Notes: generated from the sequence alone by a model not told the origin. DNA of 24,000 nucleotides from Promethearchaeota archaeon (GCA_048939265.1 JBHLPQ010000005.1:24736-48735), one strand, 5' to 3'; positions 11,316 through 23,326 are shown, counted from the stretch's first letter. Numbers and translations are program-made.

Positions 11316-12671
11316 TCAAAAGGAGTCCTTCTCATTCAAAACTTCAATAACGTCAAGTTGAATAACCGCAGCATTAGTATTAAGACGATCTGAAAGATTC
11401 GGTTGAGTTCGTCCACCATCTCCACTGATTAACTCTTTCACATATAGTCCTCCCTCACAAACTACATATGCTGTCAATTGTTGTGGTTCCAATTTCTCAA
11501 TCTGGAATTTTTGAACTTTTCTTACCCGAATTTTATCAGCGCGACGATGAACTACTCGCAATGGGGTTCGCTGTTGAATAAGTGAGCCAGAAAATTCATC
11601 TACAATAGCTGATATTTCCGTTTCTTCAAGATGGATAGGGGGATCTAAAGAAATAATCATTCGATAACCTTTTGCATTCCTACTCGATCGTGTCTTAAGC
11701 TCTCGAACTTTAGCCCGGGTAGTTAGTCCTTCGATATCAATTTCAACTTTTCCTTTTGCTTTTTTATTTACCATTTCCTTAATTTGTTTGAGATTTAATT
11801 TTCTCTTTTTTGGTTCAGAGATTTCAAGAATAAACGGTCTTCCATTTCCTAGCATAAGGGCATCGATATCTTCTCGGCCTGAACCGTGAAATTTGCTGGC
11901 TCTTCCTTCAGCTTCAACACGGAAAGGTTCTGAAACGTATTCTTCCACTGATTCTTGGTACATCTTTCCCGTAAAATTACAATATTCACACCCCTTCCCT
12001 CTACATTTCCGACAAAACCATTTTGACTGTGGGATTCCCCGTTCTAATTTTCTGTATCGCCCCAATATGAAAAGAGGATTTGGTTTAATATGAATTTGAT
12101 TATTGAGAAGATCAAATGTTAATACAATATCTGGAGCTTTAAATTCTACAGTCGCGTAATCTATTCGTTCTTGTAACATTTTACCAATTTCACGGTTAAA
12201 CTCAGATTTAATCGCCTCTCCAAATTCAAGATTATAGGTACTTCGAATTGAATCTTCTTTATCGATTATTGAAGGAGAAAATTGACTTCCCACAAGAAAA
12301 GTAGAAAATTCATAGTCATCAAGAATTTTTAGAGCATCTTCAACAATTGTTTTCATATTTTGAGAAGAAAGAATTCCCTGACAAATTTCACAACGGGAAT
12401 CATTGGCTTGTATTTCTGGATGAAATCGTTGGATTGATCTTTCCCCAATTATAAAGTCTTCAGACAACAAAGAAGATATTTTTAGAGGCTCCATTTTTGA
12501 TAATCGGTACGTATTCTCCCATTCCATTAGAAGTAGTATCTTTAGTGCTTCACCTCGTTTTTTATTAGATAGTCCTGATAATAAATTACCAAATTGTCGA
12601 CCTAAGCATGAATTACAGCAATGTACATCCATAATTAGTTGCTTAGCCTTGTTTAAGATTGGTAATTCCAT
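11316..12671 (-). CDS. pus10: tRNA pseudouridine synthase Pus10 (Psi54/Psi55)
   Basis: It has an N-terminal zinc-ribbon CCNSCLGRQFGNL plus CEIC and CRKCRGKGCEYC, a THUMP-like middle region, and a catalytic segment GSGREDIDALMLGNGRPFILEI with the conserved Asp. I place the start at the internal ATG at 12671 (MELPILNKAKQL...), which matches the usual Pus10 N-terminus. The ORF track extends to 12737. Confidence 0.9.
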   Translation of the reverse strand: MELPILNKAKQLIMDVHCCNSCLGRQFGNLLSGLSNKKRGEALKILLLMEWENTYRLSKMEPLKISSLLSEDFIIGERSIQRFHPEIQANDSRCEICQGILSSQNMKTIVEDALKILDDYEFSTFLVGSQFSPSIIDKEDSIRSTYNLEFGEAIKSEFNREIGKMLQERIDYATVEFKAPDIVLTFDLLNNQIHIKPNPLFILGRYRKLERGIPQSKWFCRKCRGKGCEYCNFTGKMYQESVEEYVSEPFRVEAEGRASKFHGSGREDIDALMLGNGRPFILEISEPKKRKLNLKQIKEMVNKKAKGKVEIDIEGLTTRAKVRELKTRSSRNAKGYRMIISLDPPIHLEETEISAIVDEFSGSLIQQRTPLRVVHRRADKIRVRKVQKFQIEKLEPQQLTAYVVCEGGLYVKELISGDGGRTQPNLSDRLNTNAAVIQLDVIEVLNEKDSF

Positions 12672-12869
12672 CAACAGACTCCCTTCATTAGGAATGGATA
12701 GGAAGCGAAGAGTATTTGCCTCAATTTTGAGAGACAATTTGTTTTATAATCGCATATCTAAGAAATTTTTTTATTTTTTTTCTCCAGATCAAATAATTGA
12801 ACAAAAAACAGAACCCAATTGTAATTAAATGATTCAGTTTATCTAGATAACAGGAGCAGGTAAATTGTT

Positions 12870-13412
12870 ATGAGACGATTTTTTGTGATTTCAAACACTG
12901 TAGATACTTCTAAATCTTTATCTCTAAATTCCTTAACAGGATATGGCCGATTGGATGTTCTATGCCGCTGCATTAATGCAGCTTTCTTTCTTTCCAACGA
13001 TTTTCGAAAGAATGTTGTCCTCAGTATTTTTTTTAAAATTAATAATAAAATTTTAGAAATATGGGGAAATGAAGTTCGTGGGATAAATCCAGACGAACGA
13101 GCTATTGCAGGAGTACTTAAACGTGTCTTTAACGGTCATTCTCACCCTGGGACAAGATTTTATTCGTCTTCTTTAGAACAATATTTTCAAAAACGGAATT
13201 TTATTATTATTGATAGAAAAGGGGATCAATTATTAAATAAACTTAGCGAATATGATTCATTCATGCTTGGAGATCAGGTGGGTTTTCCAAAAGAGATTTA
13301 CTTTCTGTTTACACATCAACCAAAAATATCCTTAGGAATCCCTATATATTTAAGTTCGCAGGTGATAACAATCCTTAATTATCTCCTAGATAACATTGAA
13401 CTAGATGAATGA
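12870..13412 (+). CDS. trmY: tRNA (pseudouridine54-N1)-methyltransferase TrmY (SPOUT, DUF358 family)
   Basis: The N-terminus MRRFFVISNT...LTGYGRLDVLCRCINAAFFLSNDFRKNV and the C-terminal MLGDQVGF...LGIPIYLSSQVITILNYLLD (SPOUT knot region) fit the family, as does the ~180-aa size. It is divergently paired with pus10. Confidence 0.8.
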   Translation: MRRFFVISNTVDTSKSLSLNSLTGYGRLDVLCRCINAAFFLSNDFRKNVVLSIFFKINNKILEIWGNEVRGINPDERAIAGVLKRVFNGHSHPGTRFYSSSLEQYFQKRNFIIIDRKGDQLLNKLSEYDSFMLGDQVGFPKEIYFLFTHQPKISLGIPIYLSSQVITILNYLLDNIELDE

Positions 13413-14862: not shown

Positions 14863-15000
14863 TGCTCCGACCGGGATTTTCCAACCACAAACAATGCGTT
14901 TAGGTTCTTTGAACCCGGGTCACAGGGGAGCTCCTGAAAGTCTGAGTAACAGACTCTCATTGAGAGCCCTGAATGATGGGCCGAGCTACACTATCGGAGC
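14863..15000 (-). tRNA. tRNA-Glu(CTC) with canonical intron plus T-loop intron
   Basis: Fold: acceptor GCTCCGA/TCGGAGC, D arm GTGTAGCTCGGCCCATCAT, anticodon stem CAGGG/CCCTG and T stem CCGGG/CCCGG. A 32-nt intron at 37/38 (14929-14960) has central helix CTCT/GGAG flanked by bulges CAA and CTC, giving the loop CTCTCAC. A second 31-nt insertion splits the T loop TTCAAA|..|T (14877-14907). The discriminator is A, followed by an oligo-T tract. Confidence 0.9.
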
Positions 15001-15079: not shown

Positions 15080-15300
15080 TGCTGGGGGGGGGCCTTTCGT
15101 GAGGTAAATCGCAATTTACCTGAATTCGAACCCCCGACTTCGGGATGTCTCGTCTGAAAGCGCGATCTGTGCCCTTAGAAGGTTATGAGTATTATTCTCA
15201 GATTATGAGTCCCGCGCTATCGGCCTTCTGACTATTGACAGTAAGATTATACCAGGCTTAGCCACGATATAATGATTATTATCGTTTAAGCCACCCCAGC
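15080..15300 (-). tRNA. tRNA(CAT), elongator Met-like (could be Ile2), interrupted by four inserted segments
   Basis: The exons assemble into a canonical 73-nt cloverleaf. Its parts are acceptor GCTGGGG/CCCCAGC, UG, D stem GCTA/TAGC, D loop AGCCTGG.A, G26, anticodon stem CGGGA/TCCCG and loop CTCATAA. These are followed by variable AAGTC, T stem GGGGG/CCCCC, T loop TTCGAA.G and discriminator A. The insertions are ~29 nt in the D stem (15260-15288), ~31 nt in the D loop (15221-15251), 57 nt at 37/38 (15147-15203) and 31 nt in the T loop (15094-15124). G1:C72 argues against an initiator. Confidence 0.8.
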
Positions 15301-15322
15301 AAATATAATTGGGGGTAATCAC

Positions 15323-15328
15323 CTTATA
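15323..15328 (-). promoter_or_regulatory. Putative TATA box for tRNA(CAT)
   Basis: The minus strand reads TATAAG at -28 to -23 relative to the mature 5' end at 15300. It is supported by position only. Confidence 0.3.
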
Positions 15329-15487
15329 CGGATGAGCATTCAGCAATACGCCTTGCAGTGGCTCTAGGATTTTAAGGTTATGCAGGAACATCTTTAAGAG
15401 AGGATCAATTTAAAAAATTGTGAAAGGAGGGACAGACTTGGACGTATAATTAACAATAAGGTTATAAACGCCTTTATTTAGTATCTA

Positions 15488-15595
15488 GCCCCGGTGGTGT
15501 AGTCTGGCCTAGCATTGATGGCTGTCAAAGGCTTATCACCTCTGATAGTCTGCCGAACCCATCCGACTCGGGTTCAAATCCCGACCGGGGCGCCA
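15488..15595 (+). tRNA. tRNA-Asp(GTC) with canonical intron; CCA encoded
   Basis: Fold: acceptor GCCCCGG/CCGGGGC, D arm GTGTAGTCTGGCCTAGCAT, anticodon stem GATGG/CCATC, loop CTGTCA|intron|C (anticodon 15524-15526), T arm TCGGGTTCAAATCCCGA and discriminator G. The 30-nt intron is at 15528-15557. CCA at 15593-15595 follows the discriminator; this is the only tRNA in the window with a genomic CCA. Confidence 0.95.
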
Positions 15596-15604
15596 AAAAT
15601 TCAA

Positions 15605-15709
15605 GGGCGCATAGCTCAGCCAGGTAGAGCGACAGGCTTTTAATGATTAAATTTTAATAGTTAAACTGAAGATACCTGTTGGCCGGGGGTTCAAATCCCT
15701 CTGCGCCCG
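15605..15709 (+). tRNA. tRNA-Lys(TTT) with canonical intron
   Basis: Fold: acceptor GGGCGCA/TGCGCCC, D arm GCTCAGCCAGGTAGAGC, anticodon stem ACAGG/CCTGT, loop CTTTTA|intron|A (anticodon 15639-15641) and T arm GGGGGTTCAAATCCCTC. The 31-nt intron at 15643-15673 has central helix CTTT/GAAG and bulges TAA and ATA. The gene lies 9 nt after the encoded CCA of tRNA-Asp (12 nt after its discriminator), so the two are probably co-transcribed. Confidence 0.95.
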
Positions 15710-18333: not shown

Positions 18334-19674
18334 ATGAATTGTTTGGATCATATTGCAATGAGAACTTTAGAAGAGAGTAAAACTTCTATTCATGTCTTAA
18401 ATTATGGATGTAGTGCTAATCGGGCTATTGCAGAAGGCTTAATGGGGATATTAAAAAGACATGGGTATACTCTCGCCAATTCTATAGAAGATGCTGAAGT
18501 AATAATTGTAAATACATGTGTTGTAAAGCAAAATACAGAGCATAGAATGAAGAGTAAATTACTATCTCTATATAAAACTAAGGAAATTATTGTGACTGGT
18601 TGTTTACCTGTTGTAATGCGTGATTGGATTTCAGAGAACTTACCCAATGCAAAGGTCCTCTTCCCAGAGGTTGCAAAGAACATTATAGAGGTACTTGAGA
18701 ATCGGCCTGTCTTAGAAACGAAGACTACTGTCCCTCACGAATGGTCACAGATGTATTCAGAAGAACGATTTCAATATAATCCTATCATTTCAACGATTGA
18801 AATATCTCGAGGATGTGTGGGAAATTGTGCTTTCTGTATAGTTAGAGATATTAAAGGAACAGTTCGCTCGCGTTCACAAGAATCAATCTTATCTGAAGTT
18901 CAGACCGCATTAGAACAAGGAAGTAGAGAAATTTGGCTTACCTCACAAGATAATGGTGCTTACGGCTGGGATTTCTCCCCCAGGATAAATATCTCAGATC
19001 TTATTAACTCTATCACATGTTTAAGAGGTAATTTTTTCATTCGAGTAGGAATGATGACTCCCATTGCAGTGAAAAGATTTTTCGATCCCTTGATTCAGCA
19101 GATACGGAATCCTAAGGTTTTTTCCTTTCTCCATTTACCGATTCAGGCAGGCTCTAATTCAGTTCTTCGAAGAATGAAAAGAAGAGAGACATATACATAT
19201 TTCATTGACCTTGTCCATCAATTACGCCATGAAATAGATGATTTTGTTCTAGCAACGGATATAATTGTTGGATTTCCAGGGGAATTGGAAGATGATTTCA
19301 AGGCGACTAAAGATCTTCTACAAAGAACAAAACCCGTAATTGTGAACATTTCGAAATATACAGATCGTCCTAATACACTAGCTTCAACCCTACCAAATAA
19401 GATCCCAACAAAAGTTAAAACTAGTAGAAGTCGAGAACTGACAAGATTAACTCAAGATCTAACTAAAAGAGAGCTAAAAAAATGGATTGGTTGGAAGGGA
19501 ATTGTATTAATTGACGAATATGGAAAATTTACTAATCAATATGTTGGAAGAAATCCCTCATATTTGCCAATAGTAATCGATGATAAAGATTTGTTACTAG
19601 GCCAGTTTGTTACAGTCTCTGTAACCGATCTTGGTCCAACATATCTTATTGGTGAAAGTGACAAGACCAATTAA
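18334..19674 (+). CDS. MiaB-like tRNA methylthiotransferase, archaeal/eukaryotic MtaB (CDKAL1) type
   Basis: It has an N-terminal UPF0004 domain (NYGCSANRAIAE...NTCVV), a radical-SAM cluster motif C-VGN-C-AF-C and a C-terminal TRAM-like domain (GQFVTVSVTDLGPTYLIGE). Confidence 0.9.
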   Translation: MNCLDHIAMRTLEESKTSIHVLNYGCSANRAIAEGLMGILKRHGYTLANSIEDAEVIIVNTCVVKQNTEHRMKSKLLSLYKTKEIIVTGCLPVVMRDWISENLPNAKVLFPEVAKNIIEVLENRPVLETKTTVPHEWSQMYSEERFQYNPIISTIEISRGCVGNCAFCIVRDIKGTVRSRSQESILSEVQTALEQGSREIWLTSQDNGAYGWDFSPRINISDLINSITCLRGNFFIRVGMMTPIAVKRFFDPLIQQIRNPKVFSFLHLPIQAGSNSVLRRMKRRETYTYFIDLVHQLRHEIDDFVLATDIIVGFPGELEDDFKATKDLLQRTKPVIVNISKYTDRPNTLASTLPNKIPTKVKTSRSRELTRLTQDLTKRELKKWIGWKGIVLIDEYGKFTNQYVGRNPSYLPIVIDDKDLLLGQFVTVSVTDLGPTYLIGESDKTN

Positions 19675-20048: not shown

Positions 20049-20852
20049 ATGGATTATTTTTATTTAGAGATGATCAGATTGGTTGAAACTGATATATACA
20101 ATATATTAAAAAAGAATCCAACATGGGATTTTTCATCAGTTATTTTAGTAGAACCAAGTAAACCTCAAAATCTAGGTAATATCGCTCGCGTGATGATGAA
20201 TTTTGGCTTTTTAGACCTTGTACTAGTTAATCCTATTCTTAGCTTATCAGATCCCGAGATCAAGGTTATAGCTCGCCGTGCTGATATGATAATTAATCAA
20301 GCAAAGCTTTTTATGGATTTTCAGGAGGTAAGAGAGAATTTTGATTTCATAATTGGTACTACAGCTAGAGTAGGAGGTGATTACAATCTGAAAAGAATTA
20401 CTATCCCCCCAGAGCGGTTATTAGAGGAAGATTTTTCCTACAATAAGCTAGCAATCGTTTTTGGAAGAGAACAATCAGGTTTATCTAATGAGGAGATTAG
20501 TAGATGTGATTTATTGGTTACAATTCCAACTCACATCGCTTATCCTGTTTTGAACATTTCTCATGCAGTTGCTATTATTCTATACTACCTTTCTCAAAAA
20601 TTCCAAGAAATCTATCAAGTTTCAAAATCAAAATTAAAACACCGAGCGGCTTCATTTAGAGAACGCCAACAATTAGAAGGTTATTTTCAACAAGTGATTG
20701 AATCGACGGGTTATCACCCTGAAAAACATCACGTGGCATTACAAGCTTTTTCGAATATTCTCTCACGAGGATATGTCACAGGACGCGAGCTAACAACTTT
20801 AATGGGAGTAATGAAATGGATCAATCTTAAACTACAAAATAAAGAAAATTAA
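20049..20852 (+). CDS. trmJ: SpoU/TrmH-class (SPOUT) RNA 2'-O-methyltransferase, TrmJ-like
   Basis: It has SPOUT motifs VILVEPSKPQNLGNIARVMMNFG, AIVFGREQSGLSNEEI and LVTIPTHIAYPVLNISHAVAIILY, plus a C-terminal extension as in TrmJ. The true start may be the internal ATG at codon 8. Confidence 0.75.
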   Translation: MDYFYLEMIRLVETDIYNILKKNPTWDFSSVILVEPSKPQNLGNIARVMMNFGFLDLVLVNPILSLSDPEIKVIARRADMIINQAKLFMDFQEVRENFDFIIGTTARVGGDYNLKRITIPPERLLEEDFSYNKLAIVFGREQSGLSNEEISRCDLLVTIPTHIAYPVLNISHAVAIILYYLSQKFQEIYQVSKSKLKHRAASFRERQQLEGYFQQVIESTGYHPEKHHVALQAFSNILSRGYVTGRELTTLMGVMKWINLKLQNKEN

Positions 20853-21022: not shown

Positions 21023-21095
21023 GCGCCGATAGTCCAGCCTGGTAAGACTCCTGTCTGCCACACAGGTGACCTGGGTTCAAATCCCGGTCGGCGCA
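21023..21095 (+). tRNA. tRNA-Gly(GCC), uninterrupted
   Basis: Fold: acceptor GCGCCGA/TCGGCGC, D arm GTCCAGCCTGGTAAGAC, anticodon stem CCTGT/ACAGG, loop CTGCCAC, T arm CTGGGTTCAAATCCCGG and discriminator A. It is 73 nt with no insertion. Confidence 0.95.
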
Positions 21096-22207: not shown

Positions 22208-23326
22208 ATGAGTGAAAACACAGCCAAAAGCCACGAAACTACTGAAGCGAAGTTACAAGCTTTTATACAGCCAATTGTTCTCGTAATCCTGATAGCCATT
22301 ATTTTATCATTATTCACTCTTGATCTCTATGCAGCAATTCAAGAAGAAAACCCAGACTACTCTCGTCCTGATATTTCACCAATTCCTGAAAATCCGGAGG
22401 ATCCAGGTGGCATAGCTTATGGAGCGATACTAAATATGATTTTTTATGTATCATTAGCTTTTATTGGTGGATTAATAGTTTTGATCATAATGAAGAAAGG
22501 GTTTATTCAGTTTTTAGCATATTTCTTTGCAGCGATGATGGGTTTTAGCTGGTTCGTCTTTGGCTACTTCTATGGAGTTGTCGTTTTAAACGGAGTTCTA
22601 AATCTATTCTGGACAGTCTTTCCTTCCTTCTTTCAACATTGGATTAATAATTTTTTTGACTGGAAGGTGATGTTTGGAGGACAATCGTTTTTCATAATAG
22701 AGATGTTGTTATATCTTTTTTCCATACTCTTAGCTTTACTAGGAGCCTTTTCATTTGGAATTCAGAATTTCGAAAAAATTTGGATCCGAAATGTAATGAT
22801 GATATTTTTTGGCGCAATGATTGGTTCAATGTTGGCAATACATCTTGGATTACTTACTACTGTACTCATTTTGGTAGGTTTATCAGTATATGACATTTAT
22901 GCTGTGTTTCGGGGCCCATTAAAAGGGATTATTGATCATGGACGTGAAACTGCACAACAATTCGAAAATAATATGGTTCCTATTGATGAAAGGGAATTTG
23001 AAAAAGTACCTTTGCTACCAGCTCTCCCCGTTTATTCTACTCCTTTGATAAATATTGGTTTGGGTGACTTTGCATTTTTCAGTATGTTAATCAGTGTTGC
23101 TGTAGTAATAGGTAGTGAATTAGGCACACCAATTCCCCTTATTGCAGCTCTAATTGGACTATTCACGGGAGCCTTTTTTACATTCAGATTATTAAGAAAG
23201 GATCGTGCTCTACCAGGTCTCCCTTTACCAATCTTTGGGGGATTGGGGTGTTTAGTTTTAGGGGTTTTAGGGAGCTTAGTACTTGGAATTATTACCCTAG
23301 ATATGATTGTAGCACTCTTTGTATGA
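22208..23326 (+). CDS. Presenilin/signal-peptide-peptidase family intramembrane aspartyl protease (peptidase A22, archaeal PSH-like)
   Basis: It is a polytopic membrane protein. The two catalytic motifs lie in adjacent TM helices separated by a hydrophilic loop: YD in LSVYDIYAVF and GxGD in NIGLGDFAFF. A degenerate PAL-like segment (PIPLIAAL) follows downstream. Confidence 0.8.
   Translation: MSENTAKSHETTEAKLQAFIQPIVLVILIAIILSLFTLDLYAAIQEENPDYSRPDISPIPENPEDPGGIAYGAILNMIFYVSLAFIGGLIVLIIMKKGFIQFLAYFFAAMMGFSWFVFGYFYGVVVLNGVLNLFWTVFPSFFQHWINNFFDWKVMFGGQSFFIIEMLLYLFSILLALLGAFSFGIQNFEKIWIRNVMMIFFGAMIGSMLAIHLGLLTTVLILVGLSVYDIYAVFRGPLKGIIDHGRETAQQFENNMVPIDEREFEKVPLLPALPVYSTPLINIGLGDFAFFSMLISVAVVIGSELGTPIPLIAALIGLFTGAFFTFRLLRKDRALPGLPLPIFGGLGCLVLGVLGSLVLGIITLDMIVALFV

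Follow-up and report, generated by a model that had tools for sequence, protein, structure and literature searches.

A predicted elongator-type tRNA(CAU) gene split by four small introns, and its intron-poor orthologues, in an Asgard archaeon

Multi-intron tRNA genes have been described in the Thermoproteales (Pyrobaculum, Thermofilum and Caldivirga; Sugahara et al. 2007/2008, via PMC4090602 and PMC8450103), where introns marked by a bulge–helix–bulge (BHB) motif, or by its relaxed forms hBH and HBh′ (H being the central helix and h and h′ the outer ones), are removed by a lenient (alpha-beta)2 endonuclease. Insertions at positions 22/23 and 59/60, both known non-canonical intron sites (PMC4090602), occur in these organisms, and several introns can interrupt a single gene. 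Up to three introns per archaeal tRNA gene are reported in the tRNAscan-SE 2.0 paper (PMC8450103). Within the Asgard superphylum, 92-95% of the tRNA genes of Atabeyarchaeia and Freyarchaeia carry introns, more than half have several, and many of the sites are non-canonical (Valentin-Alvarado et al. 2024, PMC11291895); four-intron genes are listed for Arg-TCT, Ile2-CAT and Leu-GAG in Freyarchaeia and for Trp-CCA and Lys-TTT in Atabeyarchaeia (PMC11291895, Supplementary Data 4). Here, we describe a locus of this kind in a 24,000-nt stretch of Promethearchaeota archaeon DNA (GCA_048939265.1 JBHLPQ010000005.1:24736-48735), referred to below, at its full length, as the window. Its minus strand at 15300..15080, judged from the sequence of the window and of its relatives, is very probably a genuine elongator-type tRNA(CAU) gene split by four small introns.

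Neither the kind of element nor the machinery is new, and four-intron Asgard tRNA genes have already been tabulated. A first-pass annotation of this DNA, prepared from the sequence alone, had given three introns as the usual maximum—a figure that the tRNAscan-SE paper does state, and that the Asgard tabulation has since superseded. Just as ARAGORN and Rfam miss the present gene, tRNAscan-SE missed some introns in Atabeyarchaeia and Freyarchaeia (PMC11291895), which belong to the same superphylum as our host; however, the host class differs (Heimdallarchaeia/Hodarchaeales), and the introns reported here are backed by presence/absence alleles and covariation, whereas those were backed by prediction alone. 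Our literature search found no published tRNA-intron survey for Heimdallarchaeia/Hodarchaeales, and tRNA introns are not a topic of the Heimdallarchaeum genome paper. The locus extends extreme tRNA-gene fragmentation from Atabeyarchaeia and Freyarchaeia to Hodarchaeales/Heimdallarchaeia, which among the Asgard groups are usually put closest to eukaryotes. The Thermoproteales differ in being hyperthermophilic Thermoproteota with a quoted maximum of three introns, and also in that their introns form paralogous families suggesting transposition; a blastn-short search for such copies of the four introns in the window and ~150 kb of related loci returned the orthologous positions only. Cyanidioschyzon merolae and the nucleomorphs of cryptophytes and chlorarachniophytes likewise have tRNA genes with as many as three BHB-dependent introns, located in the anticodon loop and also in the D and T arms (PMC3728597, PMC4090602), but those eukaryotic genes rely on Sen-type endonucleases, some of their introns are 3 nt long and some of the genes are permuted. 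Finally, the split and permuted tRNA genes of Nanoarchaeum equitans, Caldivirga maquilingensis and Thermofilum share the same endonuclease/ligase machinery and junction logic (PMC4090602), whereas the pieces described here are colinear on one strand within one 221-nt unit, and nothing suggests trans-splicing or permutation.

The gene lies 268 nt from the end of SRP54, among archaeal housekeeping neighbours that include Pus10, a PF04013 RNA methyltransferase, SRP54 itself, the A subunit of the A-type ATPase, L21e and S-adenosylhomocysteine hydrolase. The SRP54 protein of the window is 76-94% identical to proteins from metagenome-assembled genomes, the closed chromosome CP070695 among them, that are labelled Hodarchaeota, Heimdallarchaeota or Promethearchaeota, and on the strength of these identities we assign the window to the Hodarchaeales/Heimdallarchaeia branch of the Asgard archaea, and not to the Thermoproteales. 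The five exons were also found in colinear order at 15 further loci, comprising 10 genome loci located downstream of SRP54 and five metagenome contigs retrieved with an exon-4 pattern. At one other locus (L009) the synteny downstream of SRP54 was lost, and the contigs of L004, L010, L011 and L013 stop before the gene.

These 16 alleles, five of which lack intron 1 and five of which lack intron 2, set the mature sequence at 74 nt (GCTGGGGTGGCTTAGCCTGGTATAGCGCGGGACTCATAATCCCGAAGTCGGGGGTTCGAAGCCCCCCCCCAGCA), so that the 221-nt gene at 15080..15300 consists of five exons (74 nt) and four introns (147 nt), all on the minus strand. Exon 1 (15287..15300, GCTGGGGTGGCTTA) supplies positions 1-14—the 5′ strand of the acceptor stem, U8, G9, the 5′ strand of the D stem and A14—and is invariant in the 16 alleles, as is exon 2 (15249..15257, GCCTGGTAT; positions 15-22), which holds the D loop with G18, G19, U20 and A21, followed by U22. 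Exon 3 (15204..15218, AGCGCGGGACTCATA; positions 23-37) continues with the 3′ strand of the D stem, G26, the 5′ strand of the anticodon stem, C32, U33, the CAU anticodon and A37. Exon 4 (15125..15146, ATCCCGAAGTCGGGGGTTCGAA; positions 38-59) contributes the 3′ strand of the anticodon stem, the variable loop, the 5′ strand of the T stem and the T loop from U54 to A59, and exon 5 (15080..15093, GCCCCCCCCCAGCA; positions 60-73) closes the molecule with G60, the 3′ strands of the T and acceptor stems and the discriminator A73. CCA is not encoded; TAATTAG follows A73. The predicted exon–exon junctions are GGCTTA|GCCTGG, CTGGTAT|AGCGCG, CTCATA|ATCCCG and TTCGAA|GCCCCC, and the corresponding junction sequences are GGCTTAGCCTGG, CTGGTATAGCGCG, CTCATAATCCCG and TTCGAAGCCCCC. 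The spliced product has the conserved tRNA core, namely U8, A14, G15/C48, G18 G19, A21, U33, A37, G53-C61, U54 U55 C56 and A58. Upstream, a TATA-like TATAAG can be read in the sequence at -28..-23.

Running ARAGORN on the locus, as the first-pass annotation had proposed, gave no call in the unspliced DNA at 15080-15300, and Rfam gave none either, at gathering thresholds or at E <= 10; the gene is detectable only after splicing or through its orthologues, since both tools are blind to the genomic form. Once spliced, it was called by ARAGORN as tRNA-Met(cat) with a full cloverleaf. An essential tRNA(CAU) is thus missed by both tools, just like the tRNA-Glu 80 nt away, and genomes of this lineage will seem to lack tRNAs, with spurious open reading frames (ORFs) called across them. 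One such case is the 62-aa ORF at 15203-15391 (minus strand), which reads through exons 1-3 and stops at the TAA of the anticodon loop; it had been dismissed early on as an artefact, and rightly so, as L003-L014 lack its ATG and have an in-frame TAG ahead of it.

Intron content varies among the alleles while the sites remain identical. All four introns are present in eight alleles (the window, L001, L002, L003, L006, L008, L014 and L076), introns 1, 3 and 4 in two (L005 and L012), introns 1 and 3 in L075, introns 2 and 3 in three (L015, L077 and L078), and intron 3 only in two (L007 and L079); all 16 nonetheless reduce to the same 74-nt product, a few substitutions apart. Both one-intron alleles are recognized by the Rfam tRNA model (RF00005) at 50.6 bits with identical coordinates, a tool confirmation that is independent of any choice of blocks. 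A chance cloverleaf, obtained by four free deletions from an arbitrary 221-nt sequence, could be argued from the many degrees of freedom in selecting four blocks and from the choice made in the first-pass annotation, which is not unique within the window. The occurrence of the same five exons in the same order at 15 independent loci, together with the Rfam score, refutes that explanation, and the G+C content of the exons (65%, compared with 39% for the introns and 36% for the whole window) further reduces its probability to a vanishingly small one.

The exons are under purifying selection. Across the seven four-intron alleles of equal length, four of 74 exon columns vary, compared with 66 of 147 intron columns (Fisher p = 2e-10), and across alleles 100% of the cells in the cloverleaf stems are paired, all of them as standard pairs. 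Compensatory G-C to A-U changes occur at 28:42 in three alleles, in which G28 -> A is matched by C42 -> U, and at 50:64 in two, both pairs spanning introns; the remaining stem changes are G-C to G-U. A decaying pseudogene, i.e., a former tRNA gene disrupted by insertions, might have been suspected from the silence of the standard finders, from an insertion content of two thirds of the locus and from the poor motif of intron 2. It is highly improbable given that the introns diverge and the exons stay near-invariant over lineages with up to 24% difference in SRP54, that insertions have been gained or lost precisely and intron helices covary, and that synteny is kept in 10 genomes; the constancy of the exons and the compensatory stem changes together exclude both this explanation and a chance cloverleaf. 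The allele series, with one, two, three or four introns at identical sites, pins the splice junctions from DNA and offers material for studying the gain and loss of endonuclease-type introns.

The first-pass annotation had already read the locus as one 221-nt tRNA(CAT) gene with four introns, and this core claim is borne out by the presence or absence of introns in orthologues, the near-invariant exons and the compensatory changes. Its third and fourth blocks (15203..15147 and 15124..15094) are exact, and the insertion sites (37/38 and the T loop) and junction motifs that it gave for them stand. The first two blocks are off by 2-3 nt, with the D-stem and D-loop assignments swapped: block 1, placed at 15288..15260, is corrected to 15286..15258 (29 nt, position 14/15, in the D loop), and block 2, placed at 15251..15221 (31 nt), to 15248..15219 (30 nt, position 22/23, in the 3′ strand of the D stem), as the earlier block would delete U20. 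The cloverleaf that it described after block removal also holds—ARAGORN calls tRNA-Met(cat) from the 73-nt as well as from the corrected 74-nt version—but its length does not, the alleles giving 74 nt. In terms of sequence, the corrected register reads ...GGCUUAGCCUGGUAUAGCG... and the earlier one ...GGCUAAGCCUGGAUAGCG..., with GGCTAAGCC and CTGGATAGC as the junctions under the latter.

The ambiguity arises from short repeats at the window junctions, GGCT and TA/AA for block 1 and ATA for block 2, because of which several block choices give a cloverleaf there. Owing to the ATA at both ends, sequence fixes intron 2 only to 20/21 through 23/24; the block 1 register 2 nt upstream fits the window only, as TA/AA is repeated at both ends. 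Taken by itself, the window would accommodate the exact earlier blocks (introns at 12/13 and 19/20, 73 nt, A13 and no U20), yielding a cloverleaf in which the D stem has 4 bp (GCUA/UAGC) and the D-loop junction a GCCU/AGGC helix, likewise of 4 bp. The orthologues make this solution very unlikely: the earlier block 1 register, when read in L003 and L005, puts a U at the universally conserved A14, and alleles without the introns read GGCTTAGCCTGGTATAGCG, keeping U13 and U20. Moreover, the GCCT/AGGC helix that the first-pass annotation had listed for the D loop is a 4-bp helix in the window only, with an internal mismatch in 8/9 alleles, and was rejected as specific to the window. Intron-poor alleles read GCTGGGGTGGCTTAGCCTGGTATAGCG at their 5′ end.

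With the boundaries corrected, the four introns can be compared with the complete hBHBh′ motif (3-nt bulges, a 4-bp central helix and outer helices), which is found at introns 3 and 4. Intron 3 (15147..15203, 57 nt) occupies the canonical 37/38 site and is present in 16/16 alleles at 49-59 nt. Its BHB has the anticodon stem as h, a central helix formed by C32-A35 with CGAG, the bulges UA|a and ac|A38, and UCUGA/UCAGA as h′; A35 faces C as a mismatch in the window and forms an A-U pair in six alleles. RNAalifold, applied to 14 alleles, recovered the anticodon stem, a central helix of 3-4 bp, the 3-nt 3′ bulge and UCUGA/UCAGA, and the local minimum free energy (MFE) fold was the same. Intron 4 (15094..15124, 31 nt) lies at 59/60 in the T loop and has a full hBHBh′, with the T stem as h, UUCG/CGAA as H, the bulges AA|u and ag|G60, and an h′ of 10 positions with eight contiguous pairs. 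Here, 94.7% of cells are paired, a covariation score reached by 0/500 shuffles was obtained, and slid controls gave 36-62%; exon and intron covary where position 57 pairs with the first base of H′, the pair changing from G-C to A-U in L003 and L005. Six alleles (L075, L015, L077, L078, L007 and L079) lack intron 4 and have TTCAAAG restored. In each of the 3-nt bulges on either side of the 4-bp helix, the cut was placed between the second and the third nucleotide, a rule that reproduces the T loop UUCRAAG of the alleles lacking intron 4 and that matches the published placement of the first two anticodon bases within the 4-bp central helix (PMC4090602).

The motifs of the D-arm introns are less complete. 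Intron 1 (15258..15286, 29 nt) sits at 14/15 in the D loop and fits the relaxed HBh′ form: H joins G9-U12 to GGCU, with G10-C, C11-G and U12-G conserved and the fourth pair usually broken, a clean 3-nt 5′ bulge U13 A14|a follows, and h′ is an 8-bp hairpin. In its helices 89% of cells are paired, with three compensatory pairs, and the five alleles without it (L015, L077, L078, L007 and L079) restore the first junction listed above exactly. Intron 2 (15219..15248, 30 nt) is best placed at 22/23, although slides from 20/21 to 23/24 are equivalent in sequence; its H pairs U17a-U20 (UGGU) with GCCG, is 100% paired and invariant, and is the sole helix that puts the cut within the allowed range, leading to the 22/23 junction. 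A 9-bp hairpin (80% paired, two compensatory pairs) is set off from H by a 4x2 internal loop. Intron 2 is missing from L005, L012, L075, L007 and L079, in which CCTGGTATAGCG is restored.

Several observations weigh against reading all four insertions as endonuclease-type introns. Only three H pairs of intron 1 are conserved, its 3′ site aa|G15 has no outer helix h, and its local MFE fold in the window is a different structure, an exon 1-exon 2 helix. Intron 2 has the weakest motif of the four, with two G-U pairs and no variation in H; its 5′ site falls in the 4x2 internal loop without an outer helix, and its junction is placed only within 20/21-23/24. No gene for the splicing endonuclease EndA or the ligase RtcB lies within the 24-kb window, so that the type of enzyme rests on literature for other Asgard genomes, and splicing itself is predicted from sequence. 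The exon 1-exon 2 helix is not conserved in orthologues and was hence not used; the MFE fold of the whole precursor does not contain the D-arm motifs. On the supporting side, the four junction motifs do not overlap and can therefore coexist: a fold constrained to all four reaches -64.7 kcal/mol, about 7 above the MFE of -71.8 kcal/mol. Asgard EndA has been reported as a heterotetrameric (alpha-beta)2 enzyme with an L1 loop, which is linked to broad specificity and tolerance of relaxed motifs (PMC5829648).

Established knowledge of archaeal tRNA splicing suggests how transcription, cleavage and ligation could proceed, and in what order. The 221-nt region would be transcribed as one precursor in which the four junction structures could form at once, since their sequences do not overlap; EndA would then cut at eight sites, after the second nucleotide of each 3-nt bulge, and an RtcB-type ligase would join the five exons and probably circularise the introns. 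RNase P and tRNase Z would trim the ends, and CCA, not being encoded, would be added post-transcriptionally. Group I or II self-splicing, retention of the insertions as expansion segments, or trans-splicing might be invoked in place of EndA on account of introns 1 and 2, which lack a complete BHB. Each insertion, however, is 29-57 nt long and far below group I/II size (a ribozyme core of at least ~200 or 400 nt), with no match to an Rfam intron family even at E = 10, and introns 3 and 4 are textbook BHBs. If the insertions in the D loop, the D stem and the T loop were retained, the G18/G19-U55/C56 core would be destroyed, and all five exons follow one another on a single strand within 221 nt, with no obvious internal promoter seen, although no archaeal promoter scan was made. 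We consider these alternatives extremely improbable and retain removal by EndA as the predicted route.

The identity of the product is a separate matter. We tested the gene against the archaeal initiator tRNA and rejected it, because an initiator needs A1-U72 and three G-C pairs at 29-31/39-41 and this gene has G1-C72 and A31-U39. The isotype is elongator Met or AUA-reading Ile2, and we lean towards Met: the acceptor stem GCUGGGG is closer to the GCCGGGG-type archaeal elongator Met than to GGGCC-type archaeal Ile stems. The ARAGORN label points the same way, although it derives from the anticodon only. Our literature search found nothing usable on archaeal identity rules separating Met from Ile2. 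An AUA-decoding tRNA-Ile2, with C34 converted to agmatidine by TiaS and with the gene and its four introns the same, is a plausible, if less favoured, product. The CAU anticodon is common to initiator Met, Met and Ile2 (PMC8450103), a genome this rich in AT (36% G+C) requires that AUA be decoded efficiently, and a Freyarchaeia gene with four introns was typed Ile2(CAT) by tRNAscan-SE (PMC11291895), its exons, as we parsed them, measuring 15/16/7/22/17, which would place three introns at or next to the D-loop, 37/38 and 59/60 sites.

Turning to intron history, a rough neighbour-joining tree of SRP54 groups the four-intron alleles in one clade. Alleles outside this clade share introns 1 and 4 (L005 and L012) or intron 2 (L015), and the window has introns 1, 3 and 4 in common with the most distant allele, L012, the shared introns being recognisably homologous. 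Given this sharing beyond the clade, an intron-rich ancestor whose descendants lost introns cleanly several times is no less likely than a series of gains. Repeated loss of individual introns would imply a mechanism of the cDNA or gene-conversion type.

Additional features of intron 3 invite a related suggestion. It contains blocks that are invariant in all alleles (AUCUGAGA, CUCA, AAGGGCA and YGCGCU), of which YGCGCU is exactly complementary to the exon sequence AGCGCR (positions 23-28, 15213-15218) in 14/16 alleles; its C changes to U in L015, L077 and L078, alongside G28 -> A. Pairing of YGCGCU with exon positions 23-28 would make a pseudoknot with the h′ helix of intron 3. A box C/D guide RNA of the tRNA-Trp intron type was tried and rejected: CUGA does occur at the 5′ end of the intron, along with a conserved antisense stretch, yet none of the 16 alleles has a conserved C box. 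Intron 3 might serve in cis to guide folding or to order the removal of the other introns, or it might function in trans as a stable circular RNA. We regard as doubtful, though worth stating, the two linked possibilities that site-precise gain and loss is active on an old four-intron state and that intron 3 is more than a passive spacer; if true, the gain/loss process would be at work in the order of archaea that is regarded as closest to eukaryotes.

Four of the five tRNA genes of the window contain introns, eight in total, and the introns of the neighbouring Glu (two), Asp (one) and Lys (one) genes were counted in favour of reading the tRNA(CAU) insertions as introns. The tRNA-Glu(CUC) gene (14863-15000, minus strand) has one at 37/38 (14960..14929, 32 nt) and one at 59/60 (14907..14877, 31 nt); unspliced, it was missed by ARAGORN and Rfam, and the spliced 75-nt product was called tRNA-Glu(ctc). 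Its orthologues have one, two or three introns, including a D-loop intron in L005, L015, L077 and L078. On the plus strand, tRNA-Asp(GUC) (15488-15592) and tRNA-Lys(UUU) (15605-15709) each contain one 32-nt canonical intron, absent from the tRNA-Lys orthologue in L075. Only tRNA-Gly(GCC) at 21023-21095 is uninterrupted. In the tRNA-Lys intron (15643-15673, TGATTAAATTTTAATAGTTAAACTGAAGATA), AUGAUUA resembles a C box if the A of the preceding exon is included, and a CUGA lies 16 nt away from it; the two may represent a mini box C/D element or a coincidence in sequence rich in AT.

tRNA-modification genes surround the tRNA genes at 403-1239, 11316-12737, 12870-13412, 18334-19674 and 20049-20852. 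They comprise a TruA/Pus1-type pseudouridine synthase, Pus10 (the maker of pseudouridine 54/55), an adjoining PF04013 methyltransferase (the family to which TrmY, the methylase of pseudouridine 54, belongs), a SpoU-type methylase and a MiaB/MtaB-like radical-SAM enzyme. Elsewhere in the window, 22208-23326 encodes a 372-aa protein with a C-terminal Presenilin match (PF01080, E = 9e-13).

Finally, the spacer between the tRNA(CAU) gene and the divergent tRNA-Asp gene (15301-15445) contains a block of ~110 nt whose conservation in seven genomes exceeds that of the tRNA introns. Neither strand of the spacer showed covariation, and it has neither a conserved ORF nor a match in Rfam. Within it, at 15406-15420, lies the perfect palindrome CAATTTTTTAAATTG, which is possibly a shared bidirectional promoter or TATA element and stands as a candidate for that role.

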